From Escherichia coli (GTDB lineage Bacteria; Pseudomonadota; Gammaproteobacteria; Enterobacterales; Enterobacteriaceae): a stretch of 691 bases of DNA. The notes beneath the pieces were generated by a model. That model was not told where the DNA came from and did no database searches. It worked only from the letters and a program-made list of their open reading frames with translations. The translations under genes and the position numbers were made by a program. Location of the stretch: NCBI RefSeq assembly GCF_003334765.1, contig NZ_QOWT01000106.1, one strand, 5' to 3'. Positions 1 through 691 of the stretch are shown in pieces (position 1 is the first letter of the stretch; the number at the start of each line of letters is the position of its first letter).

Positions 1-691
1 ACACGCGCCTGGTTACCCATACACAGGGAACAGCCAGGGATCTCGATACGCGCACCACTCTTACCGAAGACGCTGTAGTAGCCTTCTTCGGTCAACTGTG
101 CGGCGTCCATACGGGTTGGCGGTGCCACCCACAGGCGGGTCGGCAACTGACCTTTATGCGCATCCAGCAGTTTACCCGCAGCACGGAAGTGACCGATGTT
201 GGTCATGCAGGAACCGATAAACACTTCGTCGATCTTCTCGCCCTGTACCGCAGACAGCGGACGCGCGTCATCCGGGTCGTTCGGAGCACAGAGGATTGGC
301 TCTTTGATATCCGCCAGATCGATGTCGATCACTGCCGCGTATTCCGCATCTGCATCGGCTTCCAGCAGCTCAGGATTCGCCAGCCATTTTTCCATGCCCT
401 GAATACGGCGTTCCAGGGTACGATGATCGCCGTAACCTTCCGCGATCATCCACTTCAGCAGGACGATGTTGGAGTTCAGGTATTCGATGATCGGTTCTTT
501 GTTCAGCTTGATGGTACAACCGGCAGCAGAACGCTCGGCGGACGCATCGGTCAGCTCAAAGGCCTGCTCAACTTTCAGATCCGGCAGACCTTCAATTTCC
601 AGGATGCGGCCAGAGAAGATGTTTTTCTTGCCTTTCTTCTCAACGGTCAGCAGACCTTGTTTGATCGCATACAGCGGAATAGCGTGTACCA
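1..691 (-). CDS. acnB: Aconitate hydratase B (aconitase B; bifunctional aconitate hydratase 2 / 2-methylisocitrate dehydratase), internal fragment truncated at both ends by the window
   Basis: Manual translation of the reverse complement gives an uninterrupted frame of 229 complete codons (codon n at plus-strand coordinates 690-3n to 692-3n; first complete codon 687..689, last 3..5; partial codons at 690..691 and 1..2). The peptide starts [231 protein letters not shown] recognise this as the catalytic region of enterobacterial AcnB, including the aconitase-family Fe-S ligand motifs SCMTN and [11 protein letters not shown]. Codon usage is typical of a well-expressed E. coli gene (CTG Leu, CGT/CGC Arg, GGT/GGC Gly, AAA Lys, GAA Glu). 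Identification is from recall, not a search. Confidence 0.95.
21..32 (-). other. acnB: Codons for predicted [4Fe-4S] cluster ligand cysteine pair (C-S-L-C in motif [13 protein letters not shown]), within acnB
   Basis: Plus-strand aca at 30..32 and aca at 21..23 are minus-strand tgt (Cys) codons separated by Ser-Leu, in the conserved aconitase motif [12 protein letters not shown]. They lie 59 and 62 residues downstream of the first ligand Cys, matching the family C-x58-C-x2-C spacing. By recollection these are Cys769 and Cys772 of AcnB. Confidence 0.75.
207..209 (-). other. acnB: Codon for predicted [4Fe-4S] cluster ligand cysteine (first of three; in motif [11 protein letters not shown]), within acnB
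   Basis: Plus-strand gca at 207..209 is minus-strand tgc (Cys), in frame within the motif [13 protein letters not shown]. The aconitase family uses one Cys in an S-C-M/T-T-N context plus a downstream C-x2-C pair as cluster ligands. If my recollection of AcnB numbering is right this is Cys710. Confidence 0.75.

Follow-up and report, generated by a model that had tools for sequence, protein, structure and literature searches.

Does a perfect inverted repeat lying deep inside a coding sequence act as a structured or regulatory element, or is it a by-product of the protein encoded there? This question is raised by a stretch of Escherichia coli DNA of 691 nucleotides, analyzed in full and referred to here as the window, in which the plus-strand segments GATGATCGC and GCGATCATC are exact reverse complements of one another. 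Contiguous perfect pairing ends at 9 bp, with c at 421 opposite c at 451 and c at 431 opposite c at 441 left unpaired, and within the window no other perfect 9-bp inverted repeat has a spacer of 20 nt or less. The first-pass annotation had described the two arms, the 11-nt spacer, the 9-bp limit, a GATC site in each arm and the encoded peptide, and all of these were confirmed by the sequence (Table 1). Core acnB, despite its imperfect repeat, has both arm GATC sites as well. The mRNA corresponds to the minus strand and reads tgG AUG AUC GCg gaa ggu uac gGC GAU CAU Cgu over the repeat. The right arm is accordingly the 5' arm of the transcript, GAUGAUCGC, comprising the third base of Trp629, Met630, Ile631 and the first two bases of Ala632, and the left arm is the 3' arm, GCGAUCAUC, comprising bases 2-3 of Gly636, Asp637, His638 and the first base of Arg639. 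The spacer accounts for the third base of Ala632, Glu633, Gly634, Tyr635 and the first base of Gly636. The right-arm residues are highly conserved, and most right-arm bases are therefore fixed by the protein. A second inverted repeat, designated I3, overlaps the left arm, and pairing of I3 and pairing of the 9-bp helix are mutually exclusive.

Table 1 Features of the window, with positions counted from its first letter.
Feature	Position	Strand or letters	Basis or remark
acnB coding sequence, codons 550-778 of 865	3..689	minus strand	sole stop-free sense frame
Left arm of inverted repeat	422..430	plus-strand letters GATGATCGC	sequence read
Spacer/loop, 11 nt	431..441	CGTAACCTTCC on plus strand; GGAAGGUUACG in mRNA	sequence read
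Right arm of inverted repeat	442..450	plus-strand letters GCGATCATC	sequence read
GATC (Dam site), left arm	425..428		sequence read
GATC (Dam site), right arm	444..447		19 bp from left-arm GATC
Overlapping inverted repeat I3	404..434; arms 404-413 / 425-434		9/10 complementary; perfect core 404-410 / 428-434
Derived base completing the repeat	424	T on plus strand, A in mRNA	codon 638 CGT (Arg) to CAT (His)

The host gene is acnB. The fragment is open throughout, carries the Fe-S cysteine motifs GSCMTN and GCSLCMGNQ, and matches NCBIfam acnB equivalog profiles at positions ~540-768 (TIGR00117, E = 1.1e-137, positions 540-767); every E. coli match is annotated as acnB. The repeat occupies nucleotides 1887-1915 of the 2598-nt coding sequence, 681 nt upstream of the stop codon. 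Its earlier placement inside acnB was thus correct as to gene identity, but the gene lies on the minus strand and is an accessory paralogue rather than core acnB. The exact 61-mer spanning 394-454, which includes an island-specific C at position 408, is present in 24 genomes, 22 of which have two acnB places. Inspection of three of these genomes (strains 746, Santai and G5) placed the match outside the core gene, in an acnB copy that belongs to the same cit-acnB island in each and encodes an identical product, WP_001596151.1. The gene order of the island is amidohydrolase, MFS transporter, citC-citD-citE-citF-citX-citG and, last, acnB. A GntR-family regulator heads the island in strain 746, the sole locus reaching that far upstream, and the borders carry IS sequences, ISEc38 on the upstream side in strain 746 and remnants of IS66 on the downstream side in all three strains. 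Over the coding sequence the island acnB shares 96.8% identity with K-12 acnB, and the two proteins differ at eight amino acids. Homology between the island and core copies stops at the borders of the coding sequence, so that both untranslated regions of the island copy are unrelated to those of core acnB. The window encodes a protein identical to that of the island copy and differs from it at three synonymous bases, where it agrees with K-12. A search of a plasmid collection returned no island copy, the matches being core-like acnB genes in large entries that, although catalogued as plasmids, appear to be chromosomal, and a literature search on the cit-acnB island returned nothing relevant. 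That the window derives from a rare, accessory copy of acnB, linked to a second citrate-lyase operon and to genes for a lactonase-like amidohydrolase and an MFS transporter, is an observation in its own right.

How unusual the repeat appears depends on the null model. The first-pass annotation had put the chance expectation at about 0.05 per window, and this value was reproduced under nulls that consider composition only: theory gives 0.053-0.057 such repeats per window, and dinucleotide shuffles (n = 5,000) gave a mean of 0.053, with at least one repeat in 4% of them, making the repeat mildly unusual. The estimate does not survive once coding is considered. When synonymous codons were permuted with the protein held fixed, the mean rose to 0.58 per window and at least one repeat was found in 44% of the shuffles. 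The repeat reappeared at its exact site in 10% of these, indicating that the peptide (W)MIA...GDHR, written in the usual codons of the gene, already makes the repeat likely. Natural sequences gave 0.086 such repeats per orthologous 687-nt fragment (81 sequences) and 0.26 per 691 nt in 325 kb of fetched gammaproteobacterial DNA, a density that implies hundreds to thousands of such repeats per genome. Under looser criteria, 233,730 short inverted repeats have been counted in the coding regions of K-12 (Lavi et al. 2018, PMC5941160). The acnB repeat resembles the repeats of that study in being perfect, with arms shorter than 20 bp and a short spacer, inside a coding sequence. The same study found repeats in non-coding regions to be more conserved than expected, and here the acnB repeat differs, its perfect state being limited to one paralogue lineage and unconserved across orthologues.

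A functional hairpin in the acnB mRNA, causing ribosome pausing, blocking a ribonuclease or binding apo-AcnB, would be expected to leave traces in folding and in sequence conservation. The isolated 29-mer is predicted to be stable as RNA (-13.8 kcal/mol, z about -5) and less so as DNA (-8.7 kcal/mol), and the core allele would keep the helix with one G.U pair at -13.4 kcal/mol. The stability of the 29-mer is circular evidence, however, because the segment was picked for being a repeat. Folded in its mRNA context and compared with shuffles, the region is unremarkable (z = -1.22 for 89 nt and -0.46 for 101 nt, with local values ranging from -0.1 to -1.6). The 9-bp helix is absent from the minimum-free-energy fold of both the 89-nt and the 101-nt mRNA, in which the I3 arms 404-413 and 425-434 pair instead. 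In the fold of the 691-nt sense strand the helix has a pairing probability of ~0.05, predicted to be so low because the overlapping I3 out-competes it. The first-pass annotation had proposed that a folding energy no better than that of shuffled controls would argue against the hairpin, and in the mRNA context this is what we found.

Conservation was examined in 80 orthologous loci, fetched from one genome per species and read in register. In an alignment of 82 sequences, 68.9% of the cells at the paired positions are paired, compared with 68.9 +/- 0.3 in shuffles; the covariation score is 0.078 against 0.077 in shuffled controls, a double change occurs at one pair against 1.0 in shuffles, and the RNAalifold consensus structure is formed without the helix. 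Covariation has little power at this site, because nearly all of the pairs have one partner fixed by Trp, by Met, or by the first two codon positions of Ile or Asp. Synonymous constraint is the informative test, and by this test the arm sites vary freely, breaking pairs. Among the Enterobacterales (n = 26) the codons are ATC in 11, ATT in 13 and ATA in 2 for Ile631, GAT in 16 and GAC in 10 for Asp637, and CGT in 15 and CGC in 10 for Arg638. Codons competent to pair are not enriched at these positions relative to the rest of the fragment (Asp637, 0.62 vs 0.72; Arg638, 0.60 vs 0.69; Ile631, 0.92 vs 0.99), and Gly636 alone leans toward its pairing codon (26/26 vs 0.90, P = 0.07). All nine pairs are kept, with G.U allowed, in only 5 of the 26 sequences, across which the predicted energy of the 29-mer ranges from -14 to -2.8 kcal/mol. 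Loss of complementarity through free synonymous variation in orthologues had also been named in advance as evidence against a functional hairpin; such variation is present, and covariation does not depart from shuffled controls.

RNA binding by AcnB is established and extends to a stem-loop in the acnB mRNA (PMC4150767), and the acnB repeat is likewise a predicted stem-loop in an acnB transcript. The known apo-AcnB-binding stem-loop lies in the acnB 3'UTR, directly after the open reading frame, and the neighboring stop codon is the position of an RNase E site (Benjamin and Masse 2014, PMC4150767). Neither the site of the repeat nor the island copy contains this element. The repeat, in contrast, lies within the open reading frame, far upstream of the stop codon, and the 3' flank of the island copy is unrelated to that of K-12. 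The changes that distinguish the island copy do not favor RNA structure either: the substitution at 424 shifts the local ensemble energy by only -0.26 kcal/mol and that at 408 by -0.20 kcal/mol, and gene-wide the island-specific substitutions are not RNA-stabilizing (mean ddG +0.14 against +0.19 for the null, P ~0.45). Taken together with the low pairing probability, the unremarkable z values, the lack of covariation and the synonymous variation that breaks pairs, these results make a functional mRNA hairpin highly improbable.

Other known classes of element fit no better. A permissive Rfam scan placed no family at the site, and its sole match lies elsewhere (RF02813, 250-339, minus strand, scoring 24.8 bits where the gathering threshold is 60); terminator and promoter scans of both strands returned no sites. 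The repeat has a G+C-containing 9-bp stem in common with the hairpins of Rho-independent terminators, for which the criterion was a G+C-rich stem with a loop of 3-8 nt followed by a T/U run. It differs from them in its 11-nt loop, in having no U/T tract on either strand and in its position within a translated region. The repeat cannot be assigned to any known family, whether of structured or of repeated elements.

At the DNA level the arms could in principle serve as the operator of a dimeric regulator, with half-sites 20 bp apart from center to center, or as a paired-GATC target of Dam or SeqA. The arms do form a perfect palindromic half-site pair with one GATC each, 19 bp apart, and the window contains 9 GATC sites against 4.2 +/- 1.9 in dinucleotide shuffles, of which a fraction of 0.0165 reach 9. 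This excess shrinks against codon-preserving shuffles (9 vs 6.6 +/- 1.6, P = 0.11), both arm sites are present equally in core acnB, the arms are not conserved across genera, and the repeat lies deep within the coding sequence. Repeated palindromic elements and operators are typically intergenic and recurring; the acnB repeat is intragenic, and a search of the 30-kb island for the half-site pair, allowing up to 3 mismatches, recovered the site itself only. Without recurrence in the island, an operator for the island regulator is unsupported, and we regard a DNA-level site of either kind as very improbable.

On the plus strand the helix has a predicted pairing probability of ~0.99, and the region folds into three adjacent hairpins with z = -3.2 (90 nt, 391-480) and -3.4 (89 nt, 392-480), as a structured antisense RNA might. 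A z of about -3.2 arising once among 82 overlapping tests is nevertheless a mild outlier. The window has no promoter-like site on either strand, and there is no Rfam match at the site. Moreover, in the core allele and most orthologues the G.U pairs of the sense strand become C.A mismatches in the antisense, so that conservation of the helix is worse on the plus strand than on the sense strand. Of the functional readings, an antisense RNA is the one to which we give least credence. By none of the tests applied here does the repeat behave as an mRNA hairpin, a terminator or a repeated binding site.

The perfection of the repeat depends on a single base. Codon 638 is Arg (CGT or CGC) in the Enterobacterales and A, P, V, K or E in more distant Gammaproteobacteria, and His is found in none of the 80 orthologues. 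In K-12, in three further E. coli core copies and in E. albertii the 3' arm is GCGAUCGUC, with G in the mRNA and Arg638; the 100% identity recorded for E. albertii applies to its best segment alone. This G allele forms an 8/9 repeat with one mismatch in DNA, corresponding in RNA to eight Watson-Crick pairs and one G.U, and the 8/9 quasi-palindrome is present in every Escherichia acnB examined. R638H is the only nonsynonymous difference between the window and K-12 over the 691 nt. Among 5,426 complete E. coli genomes, a 36-mer carrying the A allele was found in 24 and the exact G-allele 36-mer in 4,080; about 450 further genomes are one base off the K-12 36-mer, and about 900 match neither 36-mer query. 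A TAC-to-TAT variant in the loop, seen in one fetched copy, would suffice to prevent a megablast match of the 36-mer. None of the 4,080 exact matches to the G allele in core acnB carries the A allele, which was seen only together with the island-specific 408C. Residue 638 is variable across Gammaproteobacteria, and R638H is therefore probably tolerated as a neutral replacement.

The origin of this base is a question separate from function. Quasipalindrome correction offers one account: the 8/9 repeat would form a hairpin in nascent DNA, and an intramolecular template switch would copy one arm into the other, changing G to A at 424. Such a mechanism concerns how the repeat became perfect and is compatible with a functionless repeat. 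Mutations associated with quasipalindromes characteristically create pairing at a previously mismatched position (PMC7202029), and the correction model has genome-wide support (PMC5941160). The acnB site conforms to this signature, an ancestral 8/9 repeat having become a derived 9/9 repeat and the perfect arm through the site having grown from 3 to 9 bp. Only 10 of the 2,073 possible single substitutions in an ancestral-like window create a perfect 9-bp repeat, and for the ancestral DNA hairpin the mRNA-sense strand gives a predicted energy of -6.7 kcal/mol. The window contains just three island-specific substitutions. One of these, 16 nt from 424 at position 408 (U to C in the mRNA; Arg643, CGT to CGC, synonymous), lengthens the perfect core of I3 from 3 to 7 bp and would be a candidate for a second event of the same kind.

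We extended this comparison to the whole gene, which has 34 island-specific substitutions, 23 of them interior; an E. albertii outgroup column that had fallen out of register was left aside. Two of the 23 produce perfect arms of at least 7 bp, compared with 1.3% of random transitions (binomial P = 0.037), and the mean change in arm length for the interior set is +0.57 against -0.07 (P = 0.038). The arm-length statistic is subject to ascertainment bias, the window having been flagged for this very repeat, and once the flagged site is removed, arms of this length (7 bp or more) result from 1 of the remaining 22 substitutions (P ~0.25). We consequently rejected the nominal P ~0.04 for gene-wide repeat extension as evidence, since it is driven by the flagged site itself.

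The nature of the change also bears on its origin. G:C-to-A:T transitions are the commonest spontaneous class, and a lone change of this type is indistinguishable from ordinary misincorporation or deamination and needs no special mechanism. Position 424 is a single transition and lacks a multi-base templated signature. Nor does the site behave as a hotspot: the A allele accompanies 408C in every case and never appears in the more than 4,000 exactly matched core copies. With the template-switch sites described by Ripley (1982) and the thyA hotspot of Dutra and Lovett (2006), both as cited in PMC7202029, the acnB site shares an imperfect ancestral repeat perfected by a derived mutation. It differs from them in having one base change, no complex signature and no recurrence, and is inseparable from an ordinary transition. 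An origin of R638H by template switching at the 8/9 quasi-palindrome, perhaps with 408 as a second such event, is accordingly unlikely in our estimation, although less remote than the functional readings considered above. If true, it would represent a natural and datable correction of an imperfect to a perfect repeat in a recently duplicated gene, paid for by the replacement of one amino acid and as expected from the model of Lavi et al. 2018. It would then also serve as a small natural example of a nonsynonymous change fixed through quasipalindrome correction.

We conclude that the repeat is real and, with high probability, a non-functional by-product of the AcnB protein sequence and of codon usage. 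The first-pass annotation had judged it most likely coincidental and coding-constrained, a judgment that our results support, the folding and the orthologue comparison having both gone against function. In the explanation that we propose, the codons that Escherichia prefers for the conserved residues W-M-I-A...G-D-(R/H)-R give AUGAUC in one arm and GAUCNU in the other, and a single G-to-A transition on the mRNA strand (window position 424, R638H) then removed the last mismatch in one lineage. That lineage is the second acnB copy, at the end of the IS-flanked citCDEFXG island.

These results carry a point of method: composition-based estimates of chance for short intragenic inverted repeats can be about ten-fold too low, because protein sequence and codon bias together can make a given repeat likely (0.58 vs 0.05 here). 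As a biological element, the repeat matters little. Of more interest than the repeat itself is the gene in which it was found, an accessory acnB paralogue residing in a cit island.

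The gene in the window (3-689, minus strand) is a second, accessory copy of acnB (WP_001596151.1) and not the core acnB. Comparison of this island copy (L081, the locus of strain 746, around 13119 and 15716) with the core gene of comparison locus L082 revealed that the two are homologous only from the start codon to a few bases past the stop codon. Because homology is limited to the coding sequence, the island acnB lacks both the core 5'UTR and the core 3'UTR stem-loop, which apo-AcnB uses to shield the core mRNA from RyhB-induced cleavage (PMC4150767). The C-terminal residues of island AcnB also differ from those of the core protein (G858R, Q862P, T863S and A864V).

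None of the complete E. coli genomes in the collection matches the window at 100% identity. At positions 99, 146 and 150, all synonymous, the window departs from the three fetched island copies and has the base of the K-12 core acnB. The source copy is therefore an island variant that branched off earlier or, alternatively, the product of recombination with core acnB.

A second island-specific substitution is found at position 408, 16 nt from the derived base at 424; it changes U to C in the mRNA and is synonymous (Arg643, CGT to CGC). With this change, the inverted repeat at 404-413/425-434, which overlaps the 9-bp one, has a perfect core of 7 bp instead of 3. The 8-mer GATGATCG recurs in the region, owing to strings of ATC-ATC, GAT-CAT and ATG-ATC codons. 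Its direct copies at 422 and 486 belong to a 23-nt direct repeat of 74% identity, and its inverted copy at 443-450 offers an additional, alternative 8-bp pairing with 486-493. The number of GATC sites in the window is roughly double that in dinucleotide shuffles (4.2 ± 1.9), and falls within the expected range when protein and codon usage are held constant (6.6 ± 1.6, P = 0.11).

Coordinates of repeats and GATC sites in the window, and of the accessory gene cluster in the fetched loci
Feature	Coordinates	Sequence	Detail
Repeated 8-mer	422-429, 486-493 (direct); 443-450 (inverted)	GATGATCG	
Perfect 8-bp repeat	63-70/85-92	ACCGAAGA/TCTTCGGT	Inside the 46-135 fold window
GATC sites	39, 231, 317, 327, 425, 444, 489, 578, 663	GATC	9 in 691 nt
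Accessory cluster	L081 4830-15716; also L089 and L090 (strains Santai and G5)		IS-flanked; GntR regulator, amidohydrolase, MFS transporter, citCDEFXG, acnB last

A 90-nt sliding scan of folding z-scores gave its two most negative values at 46-135 on the sense (minus) strand (z = -3.5) and at 391-480, around the 9-bp repeat, where the antisense (plus) strand reached its lowest z of -3.2; among 82 overlapping tests, both are mild outliers. At 250-339 on the minus strand, Rfam returned a sub-threshold hit for the Pseudomonas PA5194 RNA thermometer, which scored 24.8 bits (E = 0.012) where the gathering score is 60. This hit falls within coding sequence and almost certainly reflects chance.

The plus-strand frame in the codon register of acnB is free of stops over 3-689 (229 codons). 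This frame is open because the fragment contains none of the sense codons TTA, CTA and TCA, each of which reads as a stop on the opposite strand; together they occur only six times in the entire 865-codon gene. The antisense frame is an artefact of codon bias rather than a gene.

The cit-acnB cluster is rare, having been found in only 24 complete E. coli genomes out of 5,426, and a literature search on it found no paper. Its amidohydrolase is distantly related to 4-sulfomuconolactone hydrolase, scoring 136.8 bits where the cutoff is 500. It is conceivable that a lactonase, aconitase and citrate lyase would together provide a route for some tricarboxylate lactone.
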